DNA of 33,689 nucleotides from a virus (lineage: Duplodnaviria > Caudoviricetes). Made by a program: the position numbers and the translations under genes. This document shows positions 11,973-33,689 of this stretch, piece after piece. The stretch covers positions 1-33,689 of the IMG/VR virus record IMGVR_UViG_3300049202_000053; one strand, 5' to 3'. Under the pieces are notes generated by a model that was not told where the DNA came from, searched no databases, and saw nothing but the letters and a program-made list of their open reading frames with translations. Each line of letters starts with the position of its first letter. The stretch's first letter is position 1.

Positions 11973-12014
11973 AGATAAAGTGGTTTGCCCGGTTTTATAT
12001 CAACATGGCCCCAG

Positions 12015-14179: not shown

Positions 14180-14187
14180 GAAAAAAC

Positions 14188-14214: not shown

Positions 14215-14263
14215 ATTTCATAAACCGGATTTTAGTGAATCGCACAACAGCAGGAATAAAGCC

Positions 14264-15892: not shown

Positions 15893-16354
15893 ATGAGCGG
15901 TTTCGGTTTTACATCACCAGCACAGGAAAGCATCACCATTGATGCCAATAGCGGCTGGCCGGAACTATCAACCGAGCAATTTCGCAAAGACCGCCGCATT
16001 CCTGAAATTTTCGAAGAGACAGCACTTGCAGACTCACTCAACCGCAGCGTGGCAGAAATACAGCTGCAGCTGATCAACTATGTAACGAGCAGTAGCGCAG
16101 ACAAGGACGTCCCTTTTACCCTGGGCGAAGGCTTAGCTCCTGATTTCAGTGAGCAGCAAATCAGTATTTACCGGGGCGCTGTATACGCACGTTCCCACGC
16201 CGATTTGCTGGGTTATTTTTCTGCTGTAGACCAAAAAGAGGCTGGAAACAACAAAGCGCAGGATACACCGCAGCAGGACGCAATCCTTGCCCAGTCCAAC
16301 CGTTCAGTGCGTTTGCTGCTGGGACTTGGCCGTGTGGGAGTGCATTCGCTATGA
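15893..16354 (+). CDS. Head completion/stabilisation protein (gpL-like)
   Basis: GWPELS..FR..RRIP, YRGAVYARSHADL; synteny. Confidence 0.88.
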   Translation: MSGFGFTSPAQESITIDANSGWPELSTEQFRKDRRIPEIFEETALADSLNRSVAEIQLQLINYVTSSSADKDVPFTLGEGLAPDFSEQQISIYRGAVYARSHADLLGYFSAVDQKEAGNNKAQDTPQQDAILAQSNRSVRLLLGLGRVGVHSL

Positions 16355-16839
16355 GCCAAACAGTTAGCCAGTTGCAGCAAGTCACCGCCTTTTTACTGGC
16401 CAGCCTGCATCCTTACGTCACCGCCAACACCATAGACGCATGGCAAGAAGGCGGAACACTGATGTTAAGCGGTGAAGACCTTGGCACCGATGGCTATCAG
16501 GTGGCGAAGTGGAAGTACAGAGCCACTATATACATCCAAAAATTCCCGCACCGCAGGGTTTCGCCTTATAACCTGCTGGCCATGCTGTCAGCATTTTTAT
16601 TAGACAGCGATTGGCCGCGTGACCAATACGGCTTAAGTGATCCTGAGCTGGATATAGACGAAGTAAGCAAAGACAACACGGACGTACAGATAGAACTGGA
16701 ACTGATGGACGATATCGACCTGATACCGGATGCAGCAGGGCCAGTGCTGTTTAACGGCCAACGCTACCGCGTGGCATTGGTGCCGGTGAATGTGGCCGAA
16801 GAAGTGGACGTGCAAACACAGCCAGGCGGTGCGTCATGA
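16351..16839 (+). CDS. Tail completion/terminator protein (gpR-like)
   Basis: Synteny after L; size; YRATIYIQKFP motif. Confidence 0.75.
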   Translation: MSQTVSQLQQVTAFLLASLHPYVTANTIDAWQEGGTLMLSGEDLGTDGYQVAKWKYRATIYIQKFPHRRVSPYNLLAMLSAFLLDSDWPRDQYGLSDPELDIDEVSKDNTDVQIELELMDDIDLIPDAAGPVLFNGQRYRVALVPVNVAEEVDVQTQPGGAS

Positions 16840-17495
16840 GCCTGATCATAAAGCCAAACAAGCAACAGGCATTAAACGTCACCATGCAGTTGGCGTTGTT
16901 AAAAATGCCAGCCAATAAGCGCACCCGAATTTTAAAAACGCTGGGCCGTTATGAAAAAGCCTTAGCCCGTAAACGCATCAGCAGCCAAACCACAGTGGAA
17001 GGCACCGCATTTAAAGCCAGAGCCAACGGCAAGAAAGGCCGCATGCTGCAAAACGTGGCAAAAAAATTAGAGCCGTATGTGAAGGGCGCCAACCTGTTAG
17101 AGCTAAAGCACAAAGCCACCTTAACAGGCCGGATTGCTGCACTGCATCAGGAAGGCGGCCGCGAACGCATGACCGCCAGCCGTATGGCCAGAATTCACGG
17201 CGCGCCTGACTACGACGCACCCTGCAGCCGCAGCATGGCAAAAGCCCTAGTGGCCGAAGGCTACAAAGTGCGTAAGGCCAAAGGCAAAGGCTACCGCAAA
17301 GCCACTATCAGCGAAATAAGCGACACCTTAAGTCAAGGTCAGGCAGGTTTAATACTGCGCCAACTGCGTGGCAATCAGAACAAAAAAAGCTGGGATATCC
17401 CAGTAGACGGCCGTCCGTTCCTTGGCGACACCACGCCAAACGTGCAGCGCCAGTTAGTCAGCATCATTGAAAAAATTAACCAGAAAAGGGGCTAA
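16836..17495 (+). CDS. Virion morphogenesis protein (gpS-like)
   Basis: Basic protein; IAALHQEG and C-terminal RPFLG. Confidence 0.8.
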   Translation: MSLIIKPNKQQALNVTMQLALLKMPANKRTRILKTLGRYEKALARKRISSQTTVEGTAFKARANGKKGRMLQNVAKKLEPYVKGANLLELKHKATLTGRIAALHQEGGRERMTASRMARIHGAPDYDAPCSRSMAKALVAEGYKVRKAKGKGYRKATISEISDTLSQGQAGLILRQLRGNQNKKSWDIPVDGRPFLGDTTPNVQRQLVSIIEKINQKRG

Positions 17496-17497
17496 AA

Positions 17498-18604
17498 ATG
17501 TCACTAGGTAAAGTGCAGGTAAACAATTTAAACCAAGGCCAAGGTGACATTACCGCCATCGAACGCCACTTCTTATTTGTAGGTCTGGCAGGTGCTCCAG
17601 GTGAAGAAAGTCAGCTCTTCAGCATTGGCGCGCAAACTGACATTGAAACCGAATTTTCAGCGAGCAACTTGCGAGCCCAGCTTATTGCCGCGCAGTTAAA
17701 CGCCGGTCAAAACTGGACAGCAGCAGTCTACCCACTGGCAGCAGATGAAGATATTTACGACGCAATCACCGCAGCCAACGAAGTACAAAGCTTTGAAATG
17801 GTGGTGTTTTGCGACGTTAGCTCCACAGGTGCCGCGCTCAGTGCTAAGCATGACTACCTGCAAAGCCTGCAGGCCAGCCACGGCCGCTTTGTATCAGGCC
17901 TTGCTGCTATTGCTGGCATTGATGATGAAGCCCAAACATGGAGCCAGTACGAAGCCGCCACCGTGGCCGTACAGGCAGGTATTGCAGCGCATTTACTCGT
18001 ACCAGTGCCACAGCTGCACGGTAACAACGTCGGTGTGCTGGCAGGGCGCTTGTGCAACCGTGCAGTAAGCATTGCCGACAGCCCTATGCGTGTAGCCACA
18101 GGTGCAGTGCTGGGATTAGGTGCAGGACCAGTCGACAGCGCAGATAAACCGCTGACACTGGCCACACTGGAAACCTTAGCCAATGCACGTCTTTCGGTGC
18201 CTCAGTGGTATCCGGATTTAGAAGGCGTGTACTGGGGCGACGGCACCACACTGGAAGCCAACGGCGGCGACTATCAATACATTGAACATCTGCGCCCTGT
18301 GCATAAAGCCAGCCGCGAAGTGCGTATTTTAGCAATCCGCCGCATTGCCAACCGCGCCTTAAATTCAACGCCAGCCAGCATTGAATTAAACAAAGCCTAT
18401 TTCATGCGGCCACTGCGCAACATGAGCAAAAGCACGGTGATTTTAGGCACCCAGTTCCCAGGTGATATTCAGCCACCACAAGACGGTGATATCACCATTG
18501 TGTGGACCAGCAATAAGGCCGTCACCATCTACATGGTGATCCGTCCTTACAACTCACCGAAAGAAATCACCGTCAACATCTTGCTTGATTTAAGCAGCAA
18601 CTAA
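17498..18604 (+). CDS. Tail sheath protein (HP1/K139 type, DUF2586-like)
   Basis: GKVQVNNLNQGQG, GVLAGRLC, IADSPMRVATG, SVPQWYPD. Confidence 0.9.
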   Translation: MSLGKVQVNNLNQGQGDITAIERHFLFVGLAGAPGEESQLFSIGAQTDIETEFSASNLRAQLIAAQLNAGQNWTAAVYPLAADEDIYDAITAANEVQSFEMVVFCDVSSTGAALSAKHDYLQSLQASHGRFVSGLAAIAGIDDEAQTWSQYEAATVAVQAGIAAHLLVPVPQLHGNNVGVLAGRLCNRAVSIADSPMRVATGAVLGLGAGPVDSADKPLTLATLETLANARLSVPQWYPDLEGVYWGDGTTLEANGGDYQYIEHLRPVHKASREVRILAIRRIANRALNSTPASIELNKAYFMRPLRNMSKSTVILGTQFPGDIQPPQDGDITIVWTSNKAVTIYMVIRPYNSPKEITVNILLDLSSN

Positions 18605-18617
18605 GGGAGCCGCCACC

Positions 18618-19067
18618 ATGCGCATTTCTGGAAAGAATTTCACCACGACTATGGGTGATATCAAGGTAACAGTTGACACAGCAACTCTGGCAATCACCGA
18701 CAACAGCGGAGTAAGCCAAAGCGGAGGCGTGCCAGATGGTTGGGTGGATGGCGACGTTGCGGCCAGTGGTGAACTGAACGTCAACGCCAGCAATTTTGCG
18801 CTGATCTCAGACGCTGCAAAGTCGGCAGGTGCATGGCGGGCTATGGAAACGTTCGACATCATGTTTTACGCAAAAACAGCCAAAGACGAAATAAAAGTGG
18901 AAGCCTTCGGTTGCCGAATTAAGTTGTCGGACATTTTGGATCTCGACTCAAAAGGCGGCCAAGCCAGCCTGTTCAAAATCCCGTTTGATGTCACAAGCCC
19001 GGACTTTGTGCATATCAATGGTGTGCCATACCTGCGGCCTGAAGAAATCGAAAACATTAAGCAGTAA
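18618..19067 (+). CDS. Tail tube protein (DUF2597-like)
   Basis: RISGKNF, GVPDGWVDGDVAASGE, VTSPDFVHINGVPYL. Confidence 0.9.
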   Translation: MRISGKNFTTTMGDIKVTVDTATLAITDNSGVSQSGGVPDGWVDGDVAASGELNVNASNFALISDAAKSAGAWRAMETFDIMFYAKTAKDEIKVEAFGCRIKLSDILDLDSKGGQASLFKIPFDVTSPDFVHINGVPYLRPEEIENIKQ

Positions 19068-19075
19068 AGCTGCAG

Positions 19076-19204
19076 CACAGTCATTCGTGACTGTGCCAGC
19101 TGTGACAGTCCGGATTAAAAAATCCGTGACTGCTACAGGACAAGCAAGCGTGACCGAGCTGGCCGCAAAAGTGACCAGCCGGCACTTAAAAAGTGTGACA
19201 ACAA
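19076..19204 (+). repeat. One perfect-arm palindrome plus a GTGAC direct-repeat array
   Basis: CACAGTC-attcgt-GACTGTG at 19076-19095; GTGAC at 19102, 19126, 19150, 19171 and 19195. Confidence 0.85.
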
Positions 19205-19215
19205 GGCAGTAAGTA

Positions 19216-19764
19216 ATGACAACAGTAAATTTTGGCTTCATTTCGGAATTAGAAGGCGGCCCAGCATTAAAGGGCTATGTGCCTGATCCGAAAAATTCAA
19301 ACTCAGGCGTAACAATCGCCACTGGGTTTGATATTGGCCAACGTTCACTGAACGAGCTTTACAGCCTGTTCACACCAGAGTTAGCCAAAAAGTTAGCGCC
19401 TTACTACGGCCTGAAAAAGCAAAAGGCCGTGGCAGAGCTGCAAAAAACACCACTGCGGATCACCGCTGAACAAGCTGCAGAAATTGACCAAGTGGTAAAA
19501 GGCCAGCTGCTGAATCAACTGGAACAGCGCTACAACAGCGCAGCACATACGAACTTTGCTGATCTGCCCGAGTGCATGCAAACCGTTATCGCATCAGTGG
19601 CCTTTCAGTACGGCGACCTAAGCAAAAAGTGCCCTAAATTCTGGCAGGCCGCTACCAGTGCAGACAGCGAAGCAATGGCAAACGAACTGAATCACTTTGG
19701 TGATCGTTACCCAACGCGCCGCCGCCGTGAAGCCGCTTATTTAATCAAAGGTGAAGCCGTATGA
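19216..19764 (+). CDS. Endolysin, pesticin C-terminal-like muramidase
   Basis: FISELEGG..GYVP..SGVTIATGFDIGQ, QTVIASVAFQYG, RRRREA. Confidence 0.88.
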   Translation: MTTVNFGFISELEGGPALKGYVPDPKNSNSGVTIATGFDIGQRSLNELYSLFTPELAKKLAPYYGLKKQKAVAELQKTPLRITAEQAAEIDQVVKGQLLNQLEQRYNSAAHTNFADLPECMQTVIASVAFQYGDLSKKCPKFWQAATSADSEAMANELNHFGDRYPTRRRREAAYLIKGEAV

Positions 19765-20315
19765 ACTGGAAAGACATTGCAAACACAGTAGGCGGCATAG
19801 CTGGCGCAGTAGCCCCGTTATTAACTGGCCCTGTCGGTTTAGCGGTCAGCATTGGCAGCCAAATAGCTGGCGCACTGGGCACCGAAAACACACCTGAAGC
19901 CGTAGCCGCAGCACTTAAAAACGACCCAGCCGCAGCATCACAGCTGCAGAAGTGGGCCCACGAAGAGCGGGAGCAAATTCGCCAGGCAAACATTCAGCTC
20001 CAAACGCTGGCTGTGGAAGAACACAAGGCGATTCTGGCAGACCGCCAACACGCCAGAGTGCAGCACAAAGACCACTGGATGCCAGCAGTGCTTACCCTGA
20101 TTTTAGTGGCCATGTTTGCCGCTCAATTGGCTGTACTGTTTTTCGTGGATATCCCAACCGGCAACCGTGATTTGCTGGTGTACCTGTCGGGCAACTTCCT
20201 GCCATTTATCGCCGCCGCCGTCGGGTACTGGGTCAGCTCAACCAAAGACGCCAACGACAGAGAAAAATTACTAAACGGCACAGGCCAACAACAGGGGCAG
20301 CAGCCATGGAAGTAA
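19761..20315 (+). CDS. Holin-like membrane protein
   Basis: Follows the lysin; N-terminal Gly-rich hydrophobic segment, two C-terminal TMs, GYWVSS motif. Confidence 0.6.
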   Translation: MNWKDIANTVGGIAGAVAPLLTGPVGLAVSIGSQIAGALGTENTPEAVAAALKNDPAAASQLQKWAHEEREQIRQANIQLQTLAVEEHKAILADRQHARVQHKDHWMPAVLTLILVAMFAAQLAVLFFVDIPTGNRDLLVYLSGNFLPFIAAAVGYWVSSTKDANDREKLLNGTGQQQGQQPWK

Positions 20316-20569
20316 GCAACTGGATGTTAGTCGGGATCGGATTTTTAACGCTGGTTTTGATAATCGTTGTGCCTGTGGTTGGAAGCTTATACAGGGCGCA
20401 AAAGGCGACAGATAAAGACTTAAGCAAGCACCAAATTCACGTTGCAGAAACCTATGCAACCAAGCACGACATACGAGAGCTGGGCGAACGTATGGAGCGC
20501 CAAATGAAAGACGGATTTGAAAACCTAAAAGAACTTTTAACCAACAGAAAAAATAAGGACGCAGCATGA
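20306..20569 (+). CDS. Single-TM coiled-coil lysis-cassette protein
   Basis: N-terminal TM, then HVAETYATK and a charged helix. Confidence 0.65.
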   Translation: MEVSNWMLVGIGFLTLVLIIVVPVVGSLYRAQKATDKDLSKHQIHVAETYATKHDIRELGERMERQMKDGFENLKELLTNRKNKDAA

Positions 20570-20832
20570 AACAACTAATCACCTTAGCCATCGGCACCAC
20601 TGAATTTGCTTTCAACGTCACAGCGCAGGACCACAACGACTTTGTGGATGCAGCCGCGCGCGGCGGTTCAATGACAGCAGCAGCGCGAAACTTTGTGGTT
20701 CGGGTAATCGACCCAGCTCAAAAAGAAGACTTTAAAAAGCTGTTAGACAGTTCACCAGGCGCAGAACTGCAAATTGCTGGAGCCCTGAAAGAAGAGTTTT
20801 CGCCAGTACTGGAAATCACTGTAAAAAAATAA
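20566..20832 (+). CDS. Tail assembly chaperone
   Basis: Precedes the tape measure gene; ends GTA AAA AAA TAA (slippery). Confidence 0.85.
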   Translation: MKQLITLAIGTTEFAFNVTAQDHNDFVDAAARGGSMTAAARNFVVRVIDPAQKEDFKKLLDSSPGAELQIAGALKEEFSPVLEITVKK

Positions 20833-21020
20833 ATGGGCTGATCGAGTCTATCGACTCGAATCAGCTTGAGCAGATGTTCATTTTGCGGCGGCACTTGCTG
20901 CCGCATGAAGACGACAGCGAACAAAGTTTAGCAAGGGCGGCGTGGTTGAATAAACGCAGCAAAGAAGACTTAGAAGCCATAGTCACCAACGCAGTATGTA
21001 AAGCCTTTGGTGGTCGATAG
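20826..21020 (+). CDS. -1 frameshift extension of the tail assembly chaperone (G-T type)
   Basis: A_AAA_AAA at 20823-20829. The -1 frame reads INGLIESIDSNQLEQMFILRRHLLPHEDDSEQSLARAAWL...AFGGR to TAG at 21018-21020. Confidence 0.8.
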   Translation, partial: KINGLIESIDSNQLEQMFILRRHLLPHEDDSEQSLARAAWLNKRSKEDLEAIVTNAVCKAFGGR

Positions 21021-21058
21021 TTGGCAGGTAAAGCAGGTTAACCAGAAGTAGGGCGCAG

Positions 21059-23011
21059 ATGAGCTTACCAGCACCGCTAATGTTCACAGTGGGTTTGATA
21101 GACCAGATAACGAAGCCGATTGCAAAAATACGCGGCCAGTTAAATGGTTTATCAGCCAACTACCAAGCAGGAACCATGCAAATGGCGTCTGGTATTGGTG
21201 GCGTGGTGGCAAGTGGCTATACACTGCAAAACGCCTTAATGCCAGCCATAGAAATGAGCCGCGCTTTAGGTGAGGTGAAATCGCTGGGGGTGCAGGAAAG
21301 CGCCCTTAAAACTCTGTCGCAGAACTCATACAAGTACGCCTTGCAGTATGGTGAATCGGCCACCGAATTTGTGCGGTCCAGCTACGACATTCAATCTGCC
21401 ATTGCCGGGTTGAGCGACACCGACTTATCACGCTTTACCATGGCGTCGAACGTACTGGCCAAAGGCACCAAGTCAGACGCCGCCACCATCACCAGCTACA
21501 TGGGCACCATGTACGGCATCTTTAAAAATGACGCCATGCAAATGGGAGAAGGTGCGTGGGTAGAACGCTTAACAGGCATGACAGCAACAGCGGTTAGGGA
21601 ATTTAAAACCGACGGTAAAAAGATGGCCGATGCCTTCGGCGCTTTGGGTGCTTCGGCTGGCCTTGCGCCACTGGAAGAGCAAATGGCGATCATGGGCAAG
21701 TTACAAGCCACTATGCAGGGCAGCGAGTCGGCCACCAAATATAAAGCGTTTTTAGCAGGTGTGGGCAAAGCACAAAAGGCACTTAACCTGCAGTTTTCCG
21801 ACGCCAACGGAAACATGCTGCCAATAGTCGACATCCTGAACAAAATTAAAGGCAAATATGGCGACGTGATCAGCGTTGCCGAAAGTGACGCATTATCCAC
21901 GGCTTTTGGCTCACAAGAAGCCGTCAGCCTGGTTAAGTTGCTGATGAACGACATCAACGGCCTGAGCGGTTCGATAAACATGCTAGGTAAGGTCAATGGC
22001 ATGGAACAGGCTGTCAAGATGGCTGAGGCCATGACAGACCCGCTTGAGCGGCTAAATGCCTACTGGTACGTGATCAGGTCGACTTTCGGCACCGCAATAC
22101 TCCCGGTGTTTAATTTATTCGTTAAGAAAATCGCTGAAATGGGAAATGAGGTTCTTTGGTTTACAGAAATGTTCCCAAACATTACGCGCATGCTGGGCTA
22201 CGTCGGAGTGGGTATTCTTTCATTCGTAGCCGTAGGCGGATTGATAACAATCATGATGGGCGCTGCCACAATGGCTATGGCGGTATGGACCACTGTGGCC
22301 ACTATAGCGACAGGAGTATACAAGGGATTAGCCTGGGCCATAAAGCTTCAGAACTGGCTAATAGCACTGCAAAAATTAGCGTGGATTGCAAACACCATAG
22401 CTTTTAAAGCCTACTTTTTAGCGTTAAGAATTGGCACAGCTGCCATGTGGCTGTTCGGTGCAACAAGCAAGGCAGTAACAGCCACGATTTGGCTATTCTC
22501 TGCGGGTTTGTCGTTTCTTCGTGGGGCCATGCTTGCCGTAAACATTGCAATGGCAGCAAACCCGATTGGTCTGATCGTTGTAGGTATCGCAGCAGCAATA
22601 GCAGCAATCGGCGCGCTGATTTACTACTGGGACGACTTAAGAGCCACTATGTCAGAGTGGGGCTGGTTAACTGCTTTGGGCGAAATTTTTAGCTCAATGT
22701 GGAGCGGAATCCAAAAGATGTTCACCGCTGCGCTAAGTTGGATTTTTGACAAACTTAGCTATCTAGGAATAGACATTCAGGCTGAATTCGGCGCTGGAAA
22801 GCTGCCAGATATGGCCGCAATGAATTCAGGCTCAAGCATCAGCAGCATAAGTGCCATTCAGCCAGTAAAAGCCACACCGCCAAGCGGAGGCATCAGCCAG
22901 CAAATAGCCAACGCTAATACCAGCAAATCAACCAGCGTCGGCCAGATCAACATTTACCCGCAAAAAGTGGATGCCGACTTTAGCAACTATGTGGAGATGC
23001 ACGCATCATGA
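21059..23011 (+). CDS. Tail tape measure protein
   Basis: 650 aa, Ala-rich, ALGEVKSLG, SSYDIQSAI, ANPIGL, hydrophobic segments. Confidence 0.93.
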   Translation: MSLPAPLMFTVGLIDQITKPIAKIRGQLNGLSANYQAGTMQMASGIGGVVASGYTLQNALMPAIEMSRALGEVKSLGVQESALKTLSQNSYKYALQYGESATEFVRSSYDIQSAIAGLSDTDLSRFTMASNVLAKGTKSDAATITSYMGTMYGIFKNDAMQMGEGAWVERLTGMTATAVREFKTDGKKMADAFGALGASAGLAPLEEQMAIMGKLQATMQGSESATKYKAFLAGVGKAQKALNLQFSDANGNMLPIVDILNKIKGKYGDVISVAESDALSTAFGSQEAVSLVKLLMNDINGLSGSINMLGKVNGMEQAVKMAEAMTDPLERLNAYWYVIRSTFGTAILPVFNLFVKKIAEMGNEVLWFTEMFPNITRMLGYVGVGILSFVAVGGLITIMMGAATMAMAVWTTVATIATGVYKGLAWAIKLQNWLIALQKLAWIANTIAFKAYFLALRIGTAAMWLFGATSKAVTATIWLFSAGLSFLRGAMLAVNIAMAANPIGLIVVGIAAAIAAIGALIYYWDDLRATMSEWGWLTALGEIFSSMWSGIQKMFTAALSWIFDKLSYLGIDIQAEFGAGKLPDMAAMNSGSSISSISAIQPVKATPPSGGISQQIANANTSKSTSVGQINIYPQKVDADFSNYVEMHAS

Positions 23012-23337
23012 GCCTCTACAGAGATTTGCACATTAGCAATGGCGACGTGGTACTGGATGCCGGCTTAAACCCAGCCTACTTAACCGACAGAGATGCCATA
23101 GCACAGGACATAGTTCACGCCATTTTAGACACAGGCCTTGCCCATTTGCTGGTAAGCGACAGAGGAACAGGCGTAACGGCCGACACCCAAATAAAAATCA
23201 AACTGCTGGTAGAAGATGACGTGCGGATCATGCCAGGCACAGTACGCATTCAAGAAGTAAGCAGCGGCCAGTGGTGGGTATTTGCTGACACCATCGACTT
23301 CGGCCCCATTTCATCCAGCATAGGCGGAGTGCTCTAA
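23008..23337 (+). CDS. Baseplate protein (DUF2590/gpW-like)
   Basis: IAQDIVHAI, VEDDVRIMPGT; synteny. Confidence 0.8.
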   Translation: MSLYRDLHISNGDVVLDAGLNPAYLTDRDAIAQDIVHAILDTGLAHLLVSDRGTGVTADTQIKIKLLVEDDVRIMPGTVRIQEVSSGQWWVFADTIDFGPISSSIGGVL

Positions 23338-24537
23338 ATGGCAGATAAAATCACCGTGCCAACCATCGACTTTGCCAAAATTGTGCAAGCTGCAGGCATA
23401 CCAACCACAGAGCAGGGCTGGAAAGACCTGTTTAAACAAGACGTGGAAGCAGAAGGCAGCATCATTGCCAACGATTCGCCTTATTCACCGTTCTGGCGGC
23501 TAATCACCGCAATAGTGGCAAAGCCAGCGGCTTGGATAGTCAACAACGTGCTGATCAAGGTGATATTGCCAAACCTGTTTTTACTCACAGCAACAGACGA
23601 TCAGTTCATTGAAGCCAAAGCGTGGGAACACGACTTAACGCGCAAAGAAAAAACCAAGGCAGAAGGTAAAGTCAGATTCAACCGCGCTGCAGCAAGTGGA
23701 CCAGGTTTATTAATACCAGCGGGAACCGTGATCCAAACCGATGCGATCAACGGCACCGTGTACCGGGTCATCAGCAAAGAGGATGTAATTTTACCGCTGA
23801 ACAGCTTAAGTGTTTTAGTGCCGGTAATCGCCGAAAACGCAGGGGCAGCCTACAACTTAGGCGCGGGTTACTTTCATGTGCTGCCAGAGGCCGTAACAGG
23901 CATTGGCAGTGTAGCCAACGAGGCAGACTGGTTAGACGTACTGGGCGCTGATGCCGAAAGCAACGACGATTTAAAGCTACGCACCCGTAACGCCTTTACA
24001 GCAAGAGCGCCTTGGCATATCGACGCCGTTTACCGCGCAATCATCACAGAACGGGCAGGCCTAGACACCGATAACGTGTATTTTGAACACGACGCACCAC
24101 GCGGCCCAGGCACAGCGAACGCCTATATTTTGCTGGATACAGGCGAGCCATCCACCGAACTGCTGGAAGACCTGCAGGAATACGTCATGGAAAAAGGCTT
24201 CCATGGCCACGGCGACGACATGGAGATATTAGCCATGCCAGGTATTGATCATGAAGTGGGCGTTATCGTGTACCCGCACACCTATTTGCTGGAAGATGAA
24301 GTCACCGCATTGCTAAGCGATATAGAACAGTTTATACGCTGTGCCTTTCGTGAAAACACCGATTACACAGCCACCCGCACGGAACCATTTGGCCGCTTTA
24401 GCTTTAGCCGTTTAGGCCAAGAGCTGCATGCCCAATTTGCAGGCATTGAGTCACTGAACTGGAGCCAGCCAGACATAACCAGCGGAAACAGCGTGCCGAG
24501 ATTAAGCACGCTTACAGTCGAAAACGGTAACGCGTAA
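23338..24537 (+). CDS. Baseplate J-like protein
   Basis: SPFWRL, GAAYNL, GADAESNDDL, APRGPGTANA, HGHGDD. Confidence 0.92.
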   Translation: MADKITVPTIDFAKIVQAAGIPTTEQGWKDLFKQDVEAEGSIIANDSPYSPFWRLITAIVAKPAAWIVNNVLIKVILPNLFLLTATDDQFIEAKAWEHDLTRKEKTKAEGKVRFNRAAASGPGLLIPAGTVIQTDAINGTVYRVISKEDVILPLNSLSVLVPVIAENAGAAYNLGAGYFHVLPEAVTGIGSVANEADWLDVLGADAESNDDLKLRTRNAFTARAPWHIDAVYRAIITERAGLDTDNVYFEHDAPRGPGTANAYILLDTGEPSTELLEDLQEYVMEKGFHGHGDDMEILAMPGIDHEVGVIVYPHTYLLEDEVTALLSDIEQFIRCAFRENTDYTATRTEPFGRFSFSRLGQELHAQFAGIESLNWSQPDITSGNSVPRLSTLTVENGNA

Positions 24538-25166
24538 TGGTTATTGACTGGAAAGCACTCACCAAAATGCCGTACTGGCTGGCACGCCCAGCCAGCGAGT
24601 TAGACAAGCTGCGCAAAGGCGCAGTGCGGTTTTGGCAGCGCTTTACAGAAATGCTGCAATTCCCAGCCAGCCAGCTCGACCCAATGACAGCGGATCTGGA
24701 AATAGTCCACCTGCTGGCATGGGAGCGAGACATAGAACAAATACCAAACGAGACAGAACTGATTTACCGCACCCGGGTTAAATACGCCTTACCTTTTGCC
24801 AAAGGCGCTGGCAGCAAGTCGGGTTGGCTGGATATGTTTAAAAGGTTGGGCCTGCCTTGGGTCACCATTGACGAACGATTCAGCGAAGTAGATTGGGACG
24901 TTGTAGACCTGATGCTGATGGACAACGACATCAGCCAAAACCAGCCATTGATCAACGCAATATGCAGACAGTACGGCAGAACAACACGCCGTTACCAATA
25001 CAGCACATTGGCCATGATGAATGCCAATACAGCATTTTGCACTTTTGATAACCAAAGCAACTACACAGTGGCAGCAGTGAATTTAAACCTACTACCTGCC
25101 ACCAGATTTATGACGATGGACAGCGACAGCAGCTTTGTCGTTGCCAAAATAACGCAAGGAACTTAA
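24537..25166 (+). CDS. Baseplate/tail protein (gpI-like)
   Basis: QLDPMT...LLAWERDI...YRTRV; synteny. Confidence 0.85.
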   Translation: MVIDWKALTKMPYWLARPASELDKLRKGAVRFWQRFTEMLQFPASQLDPMTADLEIVHLLAWERDIEQIPNETELIYRTRVKYALPFAKGAGSKSGWLDMFKRLGLPWVTIDERFSEVDWDVVDLMLMDNDISQNQPLINAICRQYGRTTRRYQYSTLAMMNANTAFCTFDNQSNYTVAAVNLNLLPATRFMTMDSDSSFVVAKITQGT

Positions 25167-25169
25167 ACC

Positions 25170-28040
25170 ATGGCACAAGTAATCACATTCGCGGGCGAAC
25201 AATTATTCGCAACAAAGGCCCAAAACAACCAGCCTTTAGACATCGACACTTTTATTTTTGCCATGGTGCCAGGGCAAGACCCAAACACGCCAATTAACCG
25301 GGCAGAAACCTTGCCACCTGCTGGCCAGATAGTGCATACGCAAATTGTGCAGCAGTACGGCAAAGTAAATAACAACGTGGTGATCTACTCCACAGTGCTG
25401 GACAGCACCATTGGGCCATTCGAATTTAACTGGGTTGGCCTGAAATCATCAGTCAACAACGTATTAGTAGCCATTCAGCACATCCCAACCACGCCAAAAA
25501 CAATCACAGTGCCAGGTGCTGCAGGTAACACTTTAAACCGCAACTTTGGCATTGAGTACAGCGGCATTGCAGAGCTGGCAGGTATTACTGTAGACGCTGA
25601 AACATGGCAACTGGACTACACAGCCCGCCTGAACGGCATGGACGATTTAACCAGACAACTGGCCGCCGATATGAACGGCAAGGACTGGTTTATCGGCGAA
25701 GGTTTTAAGGTAGAGCCACGCTCCACATTGAATAGCTTCAAAGTAAATGCCGGAGCAGGTTACGTTGGCGGCCTGCGTGTTGAGATGGAAGAAGATCAAA
25801 TTTTAACGTTAAGCTTCTACCCGCGTTTTGTGTATGTAGACGCATGGTTCGAAGGCACCAGTGAAAGCGTTTGGAAAGGCCAGTCGTCAATTAAAGTGAC
25901 GAATACAGAATTGGTAAACTATGTAGATGAAAACGGGAAAAATCACTACGTAACGAAAATAGCATTGATATCAGATGCAGAAGAAGTAAAAGATTTAAGA
26001 AATATCAGCGGCGTTGTCAGAGTATGTGGCTCGGCAAATGAGTTAGAAATATTAAGCGGTGAGTACGAAGGGCAAGCGGTAATATTATCCAGTTTTTACC
26101 ATTCTGAAGGACTTGGCGGTGGTGAATTCAATTTTACAAAAATAAACCCAAATCTATTAAGGGGTGCTGCTTTTTCATGTCCAAATGGCTGGTGGGTTAG
26201 GAAATTCGCTGGCGTTATTACTCCTGAAATGTTTGGCATGAATGGTCAGGTAGAAGATGACTTGGCATACAGCTATATGGTGTCGTACGCAAAAGAAAAA
26301 GGAATGAAGTTAATTGAAACCAATGTGAATCAGAGTGAACAAGCCTCTATTATTAAAAGAAGTAACGTTATTTTCGTCGGAGAAGGCGAGTTCTACGGAA
26401 CAAACAAAGACAGCGGCACATATAGAAGGAACGTAATACCTAAAAACGCGCTTCCGGCTATATCTTATCCCGACAAAAACATGAATTTCATGTGCAATAA
26501 ATTTTCAGCGCCATTAAAGATTGTAATAGCGGGTGACAGTCTGACGACATACGGAGCGGAAACCCTGACTTGTCAGGACGGTTTTACAGAAATGTTTGCT
26601 ATGAAAATCAGAGCAGACAACCCAGATCTTGAGTTTGATATAGTCAGCCGGGGCGTAGGGGCGCAAAAGGCAGAAAACTTAGACACGTTACCCAACGTTA
26701 GCTATCCAATTGCAGATAGATACCCATGGTACACAAACCCAGCAAGAGCCTGGCTTGATTACGTTTTTGATGAAAACCCCGACTATGTAGTGCTTTCATT
26801 TGGCATGAATGATCAATATTCATTTGACAGAGCTGCTTTTGAAAGTGTGGTTCAAAAAATAAAAAACTATGGTGCGCAAGTAATCATTGCTACGAACTTG
26901 GTGCCAAATTTAAGCCCAAACAGCGACTATGAAAGTTACGGCACATTCGATAGTCAGGAAGGCAGAGACTATGCAGCAGGATGGTTAAGAACCTATGCAA
27001 TGTACAATGGGTACCCACTGATTGATCTGAATAGAACATTTAATATCGTCAGAGACGGAAGGGACATTTTAAATACATATTTTGTGGAGCAGGAAGAAAT
27101 AATATATGCGGAGCCGTCCGTTTTTCTGCCAACAGTGGACCAGCAATGCAGGGACTTTTTTATAATTGGGATGGTTACTCCTGAAGCGTGGGCGTATGAA
27201 TACCCAATGTCAGTGAAGCTATCATCAGGCCTAAACAGTGTTGTTTTTATTGACGATGATAACGGGTTTGTAAGGTTCAAATTCTATAAAGGGGGTGATA
27301 GCGCCCTGTATGACACAGTGACAAGTGAAATACCAACCCCATCTGTTACTTCTAAAGTAGAAATAACGGTAAAAAATAACAACTTTAGCTTTAGAGTTTT
27401 GCCGGGAACAGCAGGGTATCAGGCGGGTGTGAAACCATTTACAAGAAAGATAATAAGATACGGAGGGCTATTCAGACCATACGTGCACTATTTTAGTAGC
27501 GGTAATGATGATATCGGCCCTTTGCTAAGCGTTAAATTCGGTGTGGGTAAAGAAGTTAAGCATTTACCGTCAGGTTTAGATAGCGAGATATGGGGAATTA
27601 AAGAGTTTGGGGCAAGTACCGCCGCAGAGACTGGCGGTAACGGAGTAAACCACCCTTCATCATTGGGTGCCGCGCTAGTTTATGGAGTGCATTTTTCAGG
27701 ACAAAACTACAAGTTAGAAAAAGGCGTTGAGATAGTAGAAAATATCAACGGCCTGTGCAGCAGATATTTTGATGGAAGACAGGTTTGTGAAGTAACAAAA
27801 GCCGCAGAAAGTGCCCCAACCATACCCTCTGGGGCAGTTTTTACCAATACCGCTACAGCGTGGGATTTTCCATTGCCATTTTTAGATCCACCTTATGTGT
27901 ATGGCAAAGTAAATAATTTAACGCAATGGCTGGGGTATAGCACCGGCAGCTTTGTTAGCCAAGGATTTACAGTATTCGACACATTAAGTGATTCAGCTAT
28001 ACCTACGGTTAAGTTGAAAGCGGAGGGGCGTTGGAGATGA
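25170..28040 (+). CDS. Tail fibre/spike with SGNH (GDSL) hydrolase domain
   Basis: Conserved N-terminal baseplate anchor (GPFEFNWVGL, TWQLDYTARL); SGNH blocks IAGDSLT, SRGVG, FGMND, GVNHPS. Confidence 0.88.
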   Translation: MAQVITFAGEQLFATKAQNNQPLDIDTFIFAMVPGQDPNTPINRAETLPPAGQIVHTQIVQQYGKVNNNVVIYSTVLDSTIGPFEFNWVGLKSSVNNVLVAIQHIPTTPKTITVPGAAGNTLNRNFGIEYSGIAELAGITVDAETWQLDYTARLNGMDDLTRQLAADMNGKDWFIGEGFKVEPRSTLNSFKVNAGAGYVGGLRVEMEEDQILTLSFYPRFVYVDAWFEGTSESVWKGQSSIKVTNTELVNYVDENGKNHYVTKIALISDAEEVKDLRNISGVVRVCGSANELEILSGEYEGQAVILSSFYHSEGLGGGEFNFTKINPNLLRGAAFSCPNGWWVRKFAGVITPEMFGMNGQVEDDLAYSYMVSYAKEKGMKLIETNVNQSEQASIIKRSNVIFVGEGEFYGTNKDSGTYRRNVIPKNALPAISYPDKNMNFMCNKFSAPLKIVIAGDSLTTYGAETLTCQDGFTEMFAMKIRADNPDLEFDIVSRGVGAQKAENLDTLPNVSYPIADRYPWYTNPARAWLDYVFDENPDYVVLSFGMNDQYSFDRAAFESVVQKIKNYGAQVIIATNLVPNLSPNSDYESYGTFDSQEGRDYAAGWLRTYAMYNGYPLIDLNRTFNIVRDGRDILNTYFVEQEEIIYAEPSVFLPTVDQQCRDFFIIGMVTPEAWAYEYPMSVKLSSGLNSVVFIDDDNGFVRFKFYKGGDSALYDTVTSEIPTPSVTSKVEITVKNNNFSFRVLPGTAGYQAGVKPFTRKIIRYGGLFRPYVHYFSSGNDDIGPLLSVKFGVGKEVKHLPSGLDSEIWGIKEFGASTAAETGGNGVNHPSSLGAALVYGVHFSGQNYKLEKGVEIVENINGLCSRYFDGRQVCEVTKAAESAPTIPSGAVFTNTATAWDFPLPFLDPPYVYGKVNNLTQWLGYSTGSFVSQGFTVFDTLSDSAIPTVKLKAEGRWR

Positions 28041-28582
28041 TATCCCTAAACGCCCAAACCATCCCGCTAAAAACCCTTCGGATCACAGCCAGCCAAGAGC
28101 TGGCGACCGAAGACGCCAGCGGCCAGAGCAGCAGCACGGATTCTGCTGAAACAGGCATGAAAGCCAAAATGCTTTCAGTGACTGGCTTTATCCCATTTGC
28201 CAAAGTCGAAATCCTGACCAACCTGTTCAAACTGGCCGAAGCCACCCAGGGCGGCGCGCGGGTAACGTACCGTATCGCCAACCGCACAGCCGAGGCTTTA
28301 GGCGTCAAAGAAGTGAAGTTCAGCAGCAGTATTGAAGCCGTGGAGCAAGAAAACACCCGCCAGTGGAGCATTAGTTTCACACTGGCGGAAGTGCGTAGCG
28401 TGCCACAGAAAAAAGAAGAACGGACACCACAAGCCGCCGCTGCACAACAAGGCGCAACAGGCCAAACGGCAGCCACCGAAGACGCACCGCCACAAACAGA
28501 AGTTCCGCTGACCGGCTTTACTGCATTTTTAAAGTCAGTTGACCAAAGCCTTGCACCGGCACCAGAAACGGGTAACGCCTAA
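28037..28582 (+). CDS. Baseplate/tail protein (gpU-like position)
   Basis: ATG at 28037 overlaps the fibre stop; ASGQSSST..AETG.KAK motif of HP1/K139-like phages. Confidence 0.75.
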   Translation: MISLNAQTIPLKTLRITASQELATEDASGQSSSTDSAETGMKAKMLSVTGFIPFAKVEILTNLFKLAEATQGGARVTYRIANRTAEALGVKEVKFSSSIEAVEQENTRQWSISFTLAEVRSVPQKKEERTPQAAAAQQGATGQTAATEDAPPQTEVPLTGFTAFLKSVDQSLAPAPETGNA

Positions 28583-29271
28583 TGGCCGAGCCAAACGCCA
28601 AATTTATCACCCGCGCTTACATTGGCAGCCAAAAAGTGGCGGTCAGTGATCATTGGGTGGTGCTGCAGGCAAAAAGCCCGGGCACCTGCCAGATAACTAT
28701 CGACAAACCAGCAGAGCGCCTCACACCAGTGGCGTTCGAAATGGGCTGGGGCGACATGATAGACCGGGTGTTTTTTGGCTATATCGAACGGGTAATGCCA
28801 GCAGCAAACGGCCACTACACCGTATTTTGCCGCGAACTAACATCAGGCCTTGCCAACAACCTAAGCGTAATGCTGCGACACCCCACGCTACGCCAGGTAT
28901 GCAGCGAAATAACCGCACAAACAGGCCTTGAGTTTGCACTACCTAAAAAGCCCTATGCAGACACCGCAATACCCTGTTTTTACTGCGACTGTTCCGGCTA
29001 TGCCATGCTGGACAACATAGGCCGCGCCTACAAAATTGCCGACTTTATCTGGCAACAACAGGGCAATGGCACAATCTATGTAGGCAGCCATGCCGACTCA
29101 TACTGGAACGGAAAAAACATAGCCATACCCCAAGGCCTGATGACAAACCAGCAAGGCGGCAAAACAGCCACCATACCAGCCACCCCAAAAATACGGCCCA
29201 ACGTAATAGCCAACGGCGCCAGAGTGCAAAAAGTAGAATTCAAAAAAACCGATATGCAAATAACGTGGTAA
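28582..29271 (+). CDS. Baseplate hub protein (gpD-like)
   Basis: FFGYIE, CREL, FIWQQQGNG.IYVGS; synteny. Confidence 0.7.
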   Translation: MAEPNAKFITRAYIGSQKVAVSDHWVVLQAKSPGTCQITIDKPAERLTPVAFEMGWGDMIDRVFFGYIERVMPAANGHYTVFCRELTSGLANNLSVMLRHPTLRQVCSEITAQTGLEFALPKKPYADTAIPCFYCDCSGYAMLDNIGRAYKIADFIWQQQGNGTIYVGSHADSYWNGKNIAIPQGLMTNQQGGKTATIPATPKIRPNVIANGARVQKVEFKKTDMQITW

Positions 29272-29281
29272 GGGGGTAAAC

Positions 29282-30019
29282 GTGGAAGCCGCAATTAAAA
29301 AAATACTACTTCGCCTGTTCCCCGAGCTATCAGCACAGTTGCACCTGCCGCGCTGGGGCGAAGTGATCGCACTGCCAGAACTGCCAACTGAAGAAGGCGA
29401 GCGCGGCAGCGACCCGTTTTACCCACGCTGGGCAGTCGACGTACAACTGCTGGACGAAAACGGCACCGCCACCAAATCCAAAGTACTGCAAGCCGTACCA
29501 CTGCCATTGATGGGCGCAGGCGACAAAGCAGGGCACATGCAACCGCCAGCCATCGGCAGCATTGTCGAAATAGCCTTCGCCTATGGCCGCCCGGATAAAC
29601 CATTTATTCGTACAGTTCTGCCGTATGGTTTCAACTTGCCGCCAATAAAAGAAGGCGAAGCACGCACCCAAACCAAAGATGGCGTATACCAGCAAATAGA
29701 CGCCACCGGCAACTTTGAAAACAAAACGCCAGAAAACCTAAAAGACATCATTGGCAAACTGGCAGAACTGCAATGCCAAACCCGCAAAGTAACGGCCAGC
29801 GCAGAGCAAGACCACCGCAGCCCAAAAACATGGCTGGGTAGCGAAGGCGAAAACGTGCTTAAGTTACTGTCCGAACTGATGGCAACAGTAAAAGCACTAG
29901 CCACCGAATGCGCAGGCCATACTCATGCAGGGCCACCACCTGATCAGGCCGCCGCATTCACCGCCAAAGCCAACGAAGCCCAAGCACAAAAAGACAGGCT
30001 CGACCCAATCACCAAATAG
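29282..30019 (+). CDS. Baseplate spike protein (gpV-like)
   Basis: DPFYPRWAVDVQLLD, VEIAFAYGRPDKPFIR; C-terminal HTH (HxH) metal-binding tip. Confidence 0.75.
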   Translation: MEAAIKKILLRLFPELSAQLHLPRWGEVIALPELPTEEGERGSDPFYPRWAVDVQLLDENGTATKSKVLQAVPLPLMGAGDKAGHMQPPAIGSIVEIAFAYGRPDKPFIRTVLPYGFNLPPIKEGEARTQTKDGVYQQIDATGNFENKTPENLKDIIGKLAELQCQTRKVTASAEQDHRSPKTWLGSEGENVLKLLSELMATVKALATECAGHTHAGPPPDQAAAFTAKANEAQAQKDRLDPITK

Positions 30020-30452: not shown

Positions 30453-31475
30453 ATGGCACAGACGAAATCAATTACAGGTAAGGCAGATTTTGAAAAGTCG
30501 ATCAATTCACTGATAGGCATTATTGAAGGCATTACCTTAGACGGAAAAGTAAATAACACAGAGATACAGTTCCTTGAAAACTGGCTTAGCGACCATCGAA
30601 TAAAAAGAACAGTTCACCCGTTCAGTGAGTTGTTGCCAGTAGTTGAGCAGGCCATACAGGATAACGTCGTAACACTGGATGAAATAGAAGACATCAAGTG
30701 GTTATGCAACAAACTAACATCAAGCGAATACTACAGCTCATTTACTGCCGACATGCAAAGGTTGCATGCAGTCATTGGTGCAATTGGTGCAGATGGAGTG
30801 ATCACAGAAAAAGAGCTAAGAGGGTTAACCAAATGGCTGAAAGAACATAAGCACCTACAAAAAATCTGGCCTTACGAAGAAGTACATACGCTGATCACAA
30901 CAGTAATGGCAGACAAAAAAATTGATGCAGAAGAACATAAACAACTGATGAAGCTATTCGGCGAGTTCGTATCTATATTCGACAATAAAACCATCGTAAA
31001 CCCAGCGGTCAAAGAAAAAAGCAGCATAGGAAACTTATGTGCAGTTAATCCAGTAATTAACTTTGAATCGGTATTTTGCCTAACAGGCGAATCAGAAAAG
31101 TACAGCAGAACGGAGTTTAAGTGGATTATTGAACAGCTCGGCGGTGGCATTGCAGATTCTGTCCATCAGGGTGTGGACTACCTAATTGTAGGCGGGAAAG
31201 GCAGTAAAGACTGGGCCTTCGCCTGTTACGGTAGAAAAGTTGAGGCAGCAGTAATGCTAAAGAAAAACGGCCACCACATCACTATCGTGCACGAAAGCGA
31301 TTTCCACAAAGCGGTGGCATCACACAAACCAAACGCTATTGAGGTGCCTTGGCGAAAAGAGCCAAGTCGAAGCAAAAAGAAGCCAGAAGAGAATACCAAT
31401 ATTAAAGAAACAAGAAATGGCTGCCTAGTTTTGATAGTTGCCATATTCTTAGTGGCATGGTGTTCAATGCCATAA
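30453..31475 (+). CDS. Moron: duplicated TerB-like helical domain + BRCT domain + C-terminal TM anchor
   Basis: Two repeats of G.I..DG.(V/I)...E...L..WL; BRCT FCLTGES..SR...IEQLGG..V..GVDYLIVG; hydrophobic C-terminus; AT-rich. Confidence 0.8.
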   Translation: MAQTKSITGKADFEKSINSLIGIIEGITLDGKVNNTEIQFLENWLSDHRIKRTVHPFSELLPVVEQAIQDNVVTLDEIEDIKWLCNKLTSSEYYSSFTADMQRLHAVIGAIGADGVITEKELRGLTKWLKEHKHLQKIWPYEEVHTLITTVMADKKIDAEEHKQLMKLFGEFVSIFDNKTIVNPAVKEKSSIGNLCAVNPVINFESVFCLTGESEKYSRTEFKWIIEQLGGGIADSVHQGVDYLIVGGKGSKDWAFACYGRKVEAAVMLKKNGHHITIVHESDFHKAVASHKPNAIEVPWRKEPSRSKKKPEENTNIKETRNGCLVLIVAIFLVAWCSMP

Positions 31476-31714: not shown

Positions 31715-31980
31715 CACGGAAACCAGCGCCAAGGGAAAACCCCGCCACGGAATCCGCACTCTTCCTCACCCTCCTGCGCGCTCTGTTTTTGCGTTTTTTT
31801 TCAGTTTTTTGCCCCTACAGTCCATAACCGCAGGCCGCGCCATTTCTAAAGGCTTGCGAGGATCTGAGGATCTGAAAAGAGTGCTGTTTTTTTCAGTGTT
31901 TTACAGTTTTGCACAGCGTAGTTGGTGGCATAGTGAAAAACTAAGTGCATGAAATAAAAGCGGATTCCGTGGATTCCGTG
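31715..31980. other. Candidate cos/packaging region
   Basis: CCCCGCCACG at 31740-31749 (revcomp CGTGGCGGGG, like the core of P2/186-type cos). 13-bp inverted repeat CCACGGAATCCGC (31745-31757 / 31960-31972). Position near att as in HP1. Confidence 0.45.
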
Positions 31981-32173: not shown

Positions 32174-32686
32174 TTAACCGCTTTTACTGTGCCCGGATAA
32201 ATCATTCACCAGCATAGTAAGGCTGTGGGCGGTATTAACCAGCGCCTGCAGTTTGTCGGATGATTGCATAGTCTGAATTTTGACATTTAACGCCTTAAGA
32301 CTTCGGGTTGTTTGCGCAGCTGACCACTTATAACGCCACAACATAGCCAAATCACCGGCAGTACATCGGCCATATGGCGTATGCAAAACACCATGTTCAT
32401 CTATACGCATATCAGCCCAACCGTTTGCATACGGCAGATAGCCAGCAAAATGGATATTTAAATGGCGGTGAGCAGCAGGGTGAGGTGTGTTACTTGCGAA
32501 CCAACGCCTGCAGGTTCGGGCCGAAACTCCAAAGAATTCAGCCGCCCGATCATGATTGCTTTCATTGATACCGAACACAACCAGGTACATTTCGCAGAAG
32601 TCATTTAGCCTTTCACCTTTGTTACGACGTGTAGAGTTAGTGTTTTTACCTTTATTTTTTGCACTCTCTATAGACTGTGTTTTCAT
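32174..32686 (-). CDS. HTH + DUF3653-like protein, XafT-like Xer activation factor candidate
   Basis: HTH: DRAAEFFGVSARTCRRW. DUF3653-like: GWADMRIDEHGVLHTPYG...DL. Start lies ~190 bp from the dif-like site. Confidence 0.7.
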   Translation of the reverse strand: MKTQSIESAKNKGKNTNSTRRNKGERLNDFCEMYLVVFGINESNHDRAAEFFGVSARTCRRWFASNTPHPAAHRHLNIHFAGYLPYANGWADMRIDEHGVLHTPYGRCTAGDLAMLWRYKWSAAQTTRSLKALNVKIQTMQSSDKLQALVNTAHSLTMLVNDLSGHSKSG

Positions 32687-32876
32687 TAGCTTAGCCTTAC
32701 TTATTCCATGTAGTTATAAAAAACGGGTTCTTCCCGCTAAAAGTTAACTGCATAAAACAGGCCTTATCACACGCTTTTTAACTAAAACCATCAAAACCCT
32801 AAGTTAGGTAAATTATGAGTGTTGGGGGCGCTCATAAAAAAACCAGCATAAACAGCAGATTCAACCTAAATAAGAC

Positions 32877-32904
32877 ATTTAACATAATAATCATTATGCG
32901 ACAT
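32877..32904 (-). other. dif: dif-like XerC/XerD recombination site (probable prophage att junction)
   Basis: Minus strand ATGTCGCATAA-TGATTA-TTATGTTAAAT versus E. coli dif GGTGCGCATAA-TGTATA-TTATGTTAAAT. The XerD arm is identical. Confidence 0.9.
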
Positions 32905-33110: not shown

Positions 33111-33689
33111 TTAATTGCGTGAAATCAGTTTAATACCATCGTCGTAACATTCAGTTGTTTTGCCTGAATCCGATATCACCTGGATATGATCAAAACCACC
33201 GGCTGGCGCAGACTTCTCCAGCAAGTCGGTAAAATCATCAGCTATGTCGCTGATTTCATCTCCTTTTTGTTCTAAAGCTGCGAAATGTGGTCTGTGGCGT
33301 TCTGTGATTTCATGAATTTCTTCGGCTAATTTGTGCTGTTCAGCCATTTTAACTTTATCTATACGAATACTGTGTTCATCTTCCTGATGCACAAGATCTG
33401 AAAGCTCAGCCATACGTTCGCTGTGTTGCTCCATTTCTGCTTCAAAAGCTTTTAAAGGTAAATGCAGCTCTTCCATTTGTTGCTCAACAGCTTCTAAGCG
33501 TTGGTAAGCCGCGAATTCATCTGTGGTCATAGCGCGCTGCTGTATAACTTTACAGTTTTTGATAAAAGCAATTTGTTGAGGTGCTGAGGTAACACTTGCC
33601 GAAGCGGTTTCAGCCTGAGCTGTACAACCAGCAGTGATTGCAATAGCGACGGATAACAAAGTGAAGGTCAATGATTTTTGAAATTTCAT
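33111..33689 (-). CDS. Probable host lipoprotein or exported helical protein
   Basis: Signal peptide with lipobox-like ITAG/C; lies beyond dif; AT-richer codon usage than the phage core. Confidence 0.7.
   Translation of the reverse strand: MKFQKSLTFTLLSVAIAITAGCTAQAETASASVTSAPQQIAFIKNCKVIQQRAMTTDEFAAYQRLEAVEQQMEELHLPLKAFEAEMEQHSERMAELSDLVHQEDEHSIRIDKVKMAEQHKLAEEIHEITERHRPHFAALEQKGDEISDIADDFTDLLEKSAPAGGFDHIQVISDSGKTTECYDDGIKLISRN

Follow-up and report, generated by a model that had tools for sequence, protein, structure and literature searches.

The arrangement closest to the one described here is known from the PM2/NO16 double jelly-roll prophages and the CTX-I inoviruses, in which a module of repressor, P15/XafT-like gene and dif-like attP replaces the integrase, and which also share with the present phage a variable cargo slot beside the xaf-like gene, tandem arrays and int-type sisters (PMC12715192). 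TLC with XafT and VGJ with XafV likewise carry the gene for a small HTH protein beside attP and no integrase (PMC6744903, PMC9226527, 10.64898/2026.06.12.731946), and TLC has a double-stranded attP, as here (PMC6744903, PMC9226527). Among tailed double-stranded DNA phages, Legionella LME-1 enters dif by way of the host recombinase and leaves one intact and one modified dif (PMC9765430, PMC12407071). The original prediction for the locus studied here held that Xer is exploited mainly by filamentous phages, the TLC satellite and some islands; the novelty that this gave to a tailed element does not stand, since LME-1 is already in print and Xer use by a tailed phage is not new in kind. The Burkholderia phages phiE12-2, GI15, PI-E264-2 and PK23 (Duodecimduovirus) resemble the present phage in belonging to the Peduoviridae and in having a homologous repressor with attP right after it, an HTH gene on the opposite side and no integrase (PMC2920897, PMC13026187). 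For phiE12-2, whose attP lies between gp24 and gp25, and for GI15 and PI-E264-2, the 2010 report noted no obvious integrase and concluded that a different mechanism was required (Ronning et al., PMC2920897), and phiE12-2 is classed in the Peduoviridae though it is without int and a C/cox or cI/apl switch (PMC3448106).

The DNA analysed, referred to as the window, is the whole of an IMG/VR provirus record of 33,689 bases with a completeness rating of 98%, and by its gene content it is a near-complete HP1/P2-type prophage. Searches against Pfam and PHROGs gave an HP1/P2-type gene set (gpA initiator, Ogr, portal, terminase, P2 capsid, sheath, tube, tape measure and baseplate), and, as judged from gene content, hallmarks of the Peduoviridae are present (P2-family capsid, scaffold, terminase, gpA, Ogr, contractile tail and cos). 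The closest isolated phages by capsid are Pseudoalteromonas C5a and PY3 (66% identical), of the HP1-like Peduoviridae and kin, which have the same structural gene order and the same cos. The usual P2/186 int with a C/cox or cI/apl switch was absent from the window (Pfam, PHROGs, PF00589). The features of the window are as follows.

1..309, minus strand: P16-like repressor, leftmost prophage gene (PHROG 4441/638)
562..9086, plus strand: early region with three DNA methylases, gpA replication initiator (5463-7439) and Ogr (8838-9086) (Pfam, PHROG)
9151..30019, no single strand: HP1/P2-type portal, terminase, capsid, contractile tail, lysis and baseplate genes (Pfam, PHROG)
30453..31475, plus strand: BRCT-domain cargo gene in a variable slot between tail genes and cos (Pfam BRCT)
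31744..31909, plus strand: cos region, core about 31759-31774 (aligns with both record ends of the isolated phages C5a and PY3)
32174..32686, minus strand: P15/Xaf-like 170-aa protein, putative Xer activation factor (homolog, profile and model evidence)
32692..32786, minus strand: conserved non-coding element 5' of the xaf-like gene (conservation in relatives)
32877..32904, minus strand: intact dif, prophage-host junction (arm search, simulation)
33111..33689, minus strand: host gene past the junction (homologs at equivalent junctions)

The right end thus reads BRCT cargo gene, cos, 170-aa ORF on the minus strand, a 190-bp gap, the 28-bp dif-like site and the host gene, and the alignment with C5a and PY3 supports the cos candidate proposed earlier. 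The BRCT gene was also found in the Rheinheimera marina prophage G001 and in metagenome contig L117, and had no tblastn match in the related prophages G002 and G134. The element upstream of the xaf-like gene is 87% identical to G001 over 95 bp and 75-84% identical to G134, L117 and L118 over 55-72 bp, and is likely a promoter, an operator or an accessory site; a promoter scan gave a chance-level result (2 found, 3.4 expected). A homolog of the host gene adjoins the same junction in R. marina (37% identical) and in G002 (97%), and this flanking gene, together with the hosts of the homologs, suggests that the host of the window is likely Rheinheimera or a close genus.

Several structural and early genes deserve a remark of their own. 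The small terminase frame (14914-15711, plus strand; PF05944) has no ATG near its start and is conserved from an A AAA AAG run at 14938-14944, inside the upstream ORF 14264-15019. The run holds the same frame position in the window and in all eight relatives with a match, including C5a and PY3 (phiE12-2 gave no match), and a programmed -1 frameshift fusing ORF 14264-15019 to the small terminase is likely. The three DNA methyltransferases, two adenine and one cytosine, lie at 2928-4627 and 7634-8359, and the set varies among relatives. The tail fibre (25170-28040) has a GDSL esterase domain at residues 455-629, with relatives sharing the N-terminal part only, and the endolysin (19216-19764) is a pesticin-like muramidase, as are those of C5a and PY3.

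The dif-like site consists of an XerC arm, ATGTCGCATAA (32904-32894), a centre, TGATTA (32893-32888), and an XerD arm, TTATGTTAAAT (32887-32877). It is the only exact XerD arm among eight matches in the window with two or fewer mismatches, and among 500 simulated windows none had an inner XerC arm joined to an exact XerD arm and 11 had a lone XerD arm, confirming the perfect XerD arm that had been placed at the phage-host boundary. The TGATTA centre had been taken as the sign of an att hybrid. This was rejected, because the same centre is present at both ends of G002 and at both sites of the contig that holds loci L115 and L118, and because dif centres differ between species (PMC2731167). At L006:1281-1325, a dif-like site was seen in which the host-type XerC arm stands two bases farther from the XerD arm than usual.

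Neither PF00589 (tyrosine) nor PF00239 (serine) had a match in the window, and no recombinase was found among the 48 ORFs scanned against Pfam and PHROGs, in agreement with the original prediction. The window record begins at the repressor stop codon and its own left junction lies outside the record, as in G205, which also stops at the repressor; G003 supplies the repressor end only. In the three relatives with both ends in hand, the whole prophage lies between two direct dif-like sites, the second of them about 100 bp past the repressor (98 bp in G002, 99 bp in G001 and G134), with prophage sizes of 32.9 kb in G001, 33.1 kb in G002 and 29.2 kb in G134. Over nine measured loci, the distance from repressor stop to dif-like site was 97-109 bp in eight and 43 bp in the ninth. 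PF00589 and PF00239 were also without a match inside the dif-bounded prophages of G001, G002 and G134, where eight long ORFs had no window-protein match, a reverse transcriptase and a DndB protein among them. The integration site in G001 and G134 is considered to be the chromosomal dif, because GC skew and KOPS polarity reverse across the prophage: in G001 all 9 pieces ahead of it had positive skew and all 7 beyond it negative skew (315 of 380 kb of contig), in G134 the skew was positive in 5 of 5 and then negative in 4 of 4 (180 of 424 kb), and KOPS counts in G001 went from 13:1 to 0:8. R. marina encodes XerD and an XerC-like protein, and its prophage has host genes on both flanks; in G002, G003 and G134 the prophage shares a tandem array with a second element. 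The earlier reading of an IMEX, an integrase-less tailed element at dif, is therefore supported by the two-site layout, the lack of an integrase and the terminus position in relatives, and integration at dif without an integrase appears well supported by comparative evidence. Four sequencing runs (X1-X4) compared with window positions 31000-33689 gave no excision or empty-site joint; run X1 may be the source of the window, and one contig of run X4 spans the xaf-dif-host junction, with 51 differences from the window. Runs with small shares were left aside.

The accessory genes of these relatives vary. The G002 reverse transcriptase (437 aa; L013:6555-7865) lies in the early region and is absent from the window; its Asn-rich start suggests a diversity-generating retroelement. 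The DndB-family protein of the G134 prophage (L031:7619-8653) is likewise in the early region, and in R. marina a GNAT-like and DUF1778-like pair (L001:10522-11306), by eye a toxin-antitoxin module, stands between cos and the xaf-like gene.

The two prophage ends differ in a constant manner. The XerD arm is exact at both, and the XerC arm is of host type on the xaf side and degenerate on the repressor side, with the centre identical at the two ends (TGATTA in G002, TTTCCA in G001, TGTATA in G134). Because of this geometry, the excised circle should read repressor, degenerate XerC arm, centre, XerD arm, xaf-like gene and cos. An attP-type junction of this kind is found in L117 (35,019 bases), which reads repressor, site, xaf-like gene, cos and BRCT gene, and L119, from the same metagenome sample, has the same arm with another flank; the pair fits free circles beside an integrated copy, with a tandem double lysogen as the alternative. 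Six smaller elements have two sites and a close homolog of the xaf-like gene; in five of them the centres differ, the variant centre staying with the degenerate arm (L003 was omitted as truncated, and only the G002 element was read as an inovirus). By the strand geometry of Xer recombination, XerD-side exchange would leave the variant centre with the degenerate arm, and the pattern may be a weak hint of such an exchange. A TLC-type attP, with a canonical XerC arm and a degenerate XerD arm, was not found, and TLC-like polarity was rejected: here the intact arm is XerD and the degenerate one XerC, whereas in TLC it is the XerD arm that is non-canonical (PMC9226527). Since the half-site polarity is opposite, TLC chemistry is not transferable to this phage. 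The 17-bp attP of PM2, made up of XerD arm and centre, matches the polarity seen here (PMC12715192).

The gene between cos and dif had been described as encoding an HTH plus DUF3653-like protein resembling XafT. The 170-aa protein had no Pfam match at E≤0.01, giving HTH_23 only at E 0.06 and no PF12375 (DUF3653), and its best NCBIfam match, the VC1465 Xer activation factor family (NF040522; E 1.1e-5), reached 25 bits against a cut-off of 70, so that both direct comparisons fell below their cut-offs. XafT was not located in the pTLC record and was compared through the NCBIfam model only. The HTH stood, as did an indirect likeness to DUF3653: a profile search gave 68 homologs, and the DUF3653 cut-off was passed by 18 of the 65 scanned (of 74 homologs found, nine fragments or long repeats being omitted). 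XafV and PM2 P15 also fall just under this cut-off, and the atlas ranked DUF3653-bearing clusters first for the 170-aa protein (0.92; 42% of members). BLASTP matched NO16 gene 7 (37% identical, E 1e-10) and PM2 P15 (29%, E 7e-9). A wide profile of the family gave a probability of 99.5 for PM2 P15 and 96.5 for XafV, and a narrow profile of close homologs gave 96 for PM2 P15 and only 7 for XafV. The XafT-like label is thus better replaced, the protein being closer by score to PM2 P15 and NO16 gene 7 than to the XafT family, and on these comparisons it is a relative of the tested activators and not a family member by score. NO16 gene 7 (L113:1192-1623) is annotated as S-adenosylhomocysteine hydrolase, yet is a clear DUF3653 protein (57 bits), and the annotation looks wrong. 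The predicted structure of the 170-aa protein (pLDDT 86) has an HTH, a small beta domain and long C-terminal helices, and a fold search in the viral library and PDB returned nothing at E≤0.001, finding the HTH only. In a complex predicted for R. marina XerD with a dimer of the Xaf-like protein of the same species, the score was 0.12 and the mark 0.32, a result that counts neither for nor against an interaction. When isolated phages were queried with DUF3653 and XafV, only small Vibrio phages were among the matches listed. The combination of an HTH and DUF3653-like domain with a gene beside attP is present here, the xaf-like gene adjoins attP in every Rheinheimera-type case showing that end, and it is kept or swapped for another family member (34% identical in G134, 31% in L117).

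The repressor at the opposite end of the prophage is 39% identical to NO16 gene 6 and 75-80% identical to the repressors at L115 and L118, and matched PM2 P16 by hhalign (prob 77, E 2e-5). The L115 and L118 repressors lie 12.4 kb apart on one contig, and the genes after the L118 site resemble those of tailless prophages. The xaf-like proteins of the window and of an inovirus in G002 share 49% identity, and the G134 and L117 versions are 45-48% identical to the L118 version. Because of these likenesses, the cassette is seen as common to filamentous and tailless phages at the same dif, and by homology the P15/Xaf-like protein with the P16-like repressor is the module published for those phages. 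The near-identical early regions at L115 and L118 share the repressor, the next gene and gpA with the tailed phage, and early modules appear to have been swapped between tailed and tailless phages. The G002 inovirus (L014:3876-14526), which has a xaf-like gene of its own, forms a tandem array with the tailed prophage that precedes it, and is followed by a third dif-like site and a second copy of the end of the inovirus repressor. Relative to the site, the inovirus repressor and xaf genes are arranged in reverse compared with the tailed phage.

The window repressor also matches gp24 of phiE12-2 (40% identical at E 3e-8 in one comparison, 33% in another), a myovirus whose annotation lists no integrase. 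Its published attP contains the B. mallei dif XerD arm (11 of 11 bases) plus the centre, with the arms taken from PMC2731167, and its virion genome has the order repressor, attP, gp25 side, as in L117. Of 22 related Burkholderia-type IMG/VR loci, 16 records were searched, each of which shows one end at most, and the counts rest on these, structural genes apart. PF00589 was found in none of the 16. One XerD arm is kept in nine, at the gp25 end with a host-type XerC arm in four, one of which matches both B. mallei arms fully, and after the repressor with a degenerate XerC arm in five; in five records the strict Burkholderia arm was absent, and variant arms were then found. At the junction in the phiE12-2 virion, the arm from the repressor side continues into the flank that L086 shows at its gp25 end. 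The likeness of gp25 to the Xaf-like family is in the HTH only (prob 12; atlas DUF3653 rows under 0.9). Taken together, the dif-type layout likely explains the integration of phiE12-2, reported as unexplained in 2010. Its att was not called a dif site in the literature searched, which was mostly without subscription papers, and the accessible text of a 2026 paper calls GI15 a non-tRNA location without mention of Xer (PMC13026187). A 34-kb Ralstonia record, YO188_1, was considered as a two-ended case and dropped, its two sites being only 7.7 kb apart.

As controls, we examined three P2-like prophages of the same host family (G025, G030 and G120). In all of them an integrase lies no more than about 17 kb from the capsid gene, and neither the repressor nor the xaf-like gene had a match; the lone exact XerD arm seen near the integrase-bearing prophage of G120 is an event of about 2% by chance in window-sized sequences. 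The six Rheinheimera-like rows of dif type group in a single starred clade of the portal tree, among int-type rows, and in the terminase tree dif-type rows are unresolved from int-type sisters. PhiE12-2 lies apart from the Rheinheimera type on both, so that its group is likely a second acquisition; the dif/int label needs two changes, and two independent gains of dif-type lysogeny would be the simplest reading of these unrooted trees. A class-wide search found the repressor family in 9 of 400 genomes, with an XerD-like arm nearby at 6 of 12 loci, and because only G001 showed P2-like neighbours within 1.5 kb, the evidence for the dif-type layout covers two lineages. Within the host family, repressor matches in 8 of 201 genomes included two with P2-like and two with PM2-like ORFs by eye, the remaining four being outside the typing, and the P2 capsid, present in 9 of 201, was associated with a dif-type layout in two, with an integrase in three, and unresolved in four.

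The reading that we favour, and consider likely as a whole, is that of an integrase-less P2/HP1-type prophage at dif that uses host XerC/XerD and brings its own P15/Xaf-like switch. In the P2 life cycle, the genome closes at cos after infection, and the same would be expected here. The circle would then carry the repressor, an attP made up of degenerate XerC arm, centre and intact XerD arm, the xaf-like gene and cos. Recombination of attP with dif would leave one dif intact beside the xaf-like gene and another crippled beside the repressor, the configuration seen in G001, G002 and G134, and the cell would keep one working dif. Excision would likewise proceed through host XerC/XerD. Integration at dif by host Xer is the part we hold with greatest assurance, as very probable, and we infer its dependence on XerCD. 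That the 170-aa protein is an Xer activator seems probable, with less assurance; by analogy with XafT and XafV, it would free the reaction from FtsK and offset the poor XerC arm. Exchange on the XerD side as the likelier first step is a weak inference, which we prefer by a narrow margin.

The 170-aa protein of a dif-targeting phage might also be a transcriptional regulator only, in which case integration would draw on basal Xer activity, FtsK or a trans-acting activator from a neighbouring filamentous or tailless prophage. This would suit the fold search, which found an HTH only, the lack of clear homology past the HTH in gp25, the description of PM2 P15 as a transcriptional regulator (PMC12715192) and the tandem second elements of G002, G003 and G134. 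Against it stand the host genes on both sides of the prophage in G001, the placement of the xaf-like gene beside attP in every Rheinheimera-type case showing that end, with the gene kept or replaced within its family, and the finding that the XafT and XafV genes adjoin attP and raise integration in vivo (10.64898/2026.06.12.731946). We regard the regulator-only explanation as unlikely, though it is the most serious of the competitors.

The remaining explanations treat the site itself as incidental. If an ordinary P2-like prophage had lost its integrase beside a dif-targeting small phage, the repressor and xaf-like gene would be relics and the dif sites leftovers, and indeed prophages are commonly arrayed in tandem at dif, where such an array is often mistaken for a single element (PMC12715192), and the G002 inovirus has a xaf-like protein 49% identical to that of the window. 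Against this, the repressor-site spacing is nearly constant, the layout recurs among prophages whose tail proteins are only 32-42% identical, and the attP-type junction exists in L117 and is carried by phiE12-2 virions; we hold this explanation to be very improbable. Only slightly higher do we rate the proposal that the dif-like site resolves multimers of a replicating circle, insertion being a by-product of RecA or accidental Xer events. Plasmid Xer sites do resolve multimers (PMC9226527), and the 17-bp identity of attP and dif could permit rare events, but the three fully seen prophages all lie between dif-like sites, two of them on long host contigs at the terminus, and no other lysogeny route was found in the phage among the families scanned.

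Returning to the favoured reading of a phage that enters dif through host XerC/XerD, the results would add ordinary P2-type myoviruses to the small non-tailed phages that hijack XerCD with the help of an activator gene, and they offer a testable answer to the 2010 puzzle of integrase-less integration by phiE12-2, GI15 and PI-E264-2. Tailed genomes that lack an integrase in this way would be wrongly scored as lytic or defective, with consequences for predicting lifestyle and for choosing antibacterial phages. R. marina, with a single such prophage between host genes, makes direct testing possible, and the reversed attP polarity makes the Xaf-like protein a useful probe of XerCD switching by activators. 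Going further, we lean slightly toward the idea that a portable cassette of P16-like repressor, half-dif attP and Xaf-like activator moves among filamentous, tailless and tailed phages and, within the Peduoviridae, has taken the place of the integrase on at least two occasions; phiE12-2, PK23 and GI15 would then be cultured XerCD-hijackers, and the Rheinheimera-type protein would activate an attP without an XerC arm, in a mirror of TLC. A P2-like tailed element that exploits Xer, or a tailed one using XerCD plus an activator, was not described in the literature searched (including PMC9966536, PMC12860723, PMC11630473 and PMC3861242), which was mostly without subscription papers; the supplement of PMC6744903 has a DUF3653 survey that could include such prophages.

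The phage also differs from each of the known systems. C5a and PY3 differ from it in encoding their own site-specific integrase and their own repressor switch. LME-1 has a T7-like short-tailed virion and a single recombinase, XerL, with no activator identified in the accessible text of the reports (PMC9765430, PMC12407071). The phiE12-2 group stands on a separate branch of both trees, has in gp25 a likeness to Xaf that is confined to the HTH, and is not described as Xer-dependent in the accessible parts of its literature (PMC2920897, PMC13026187). Set beside TLC and VGJ, the present phage is a helper-independent one, and its likeness to XafT and XafV is below the family cut-offs. The PM2/NO16 and CTX-I elements share its module, but the accessible text of their description covers non-tailed phages only (PMC12715192), whereas here the module is found in a 29-33 kb contractile-tailed, cos-packaging phage, and so in a third viral realm.
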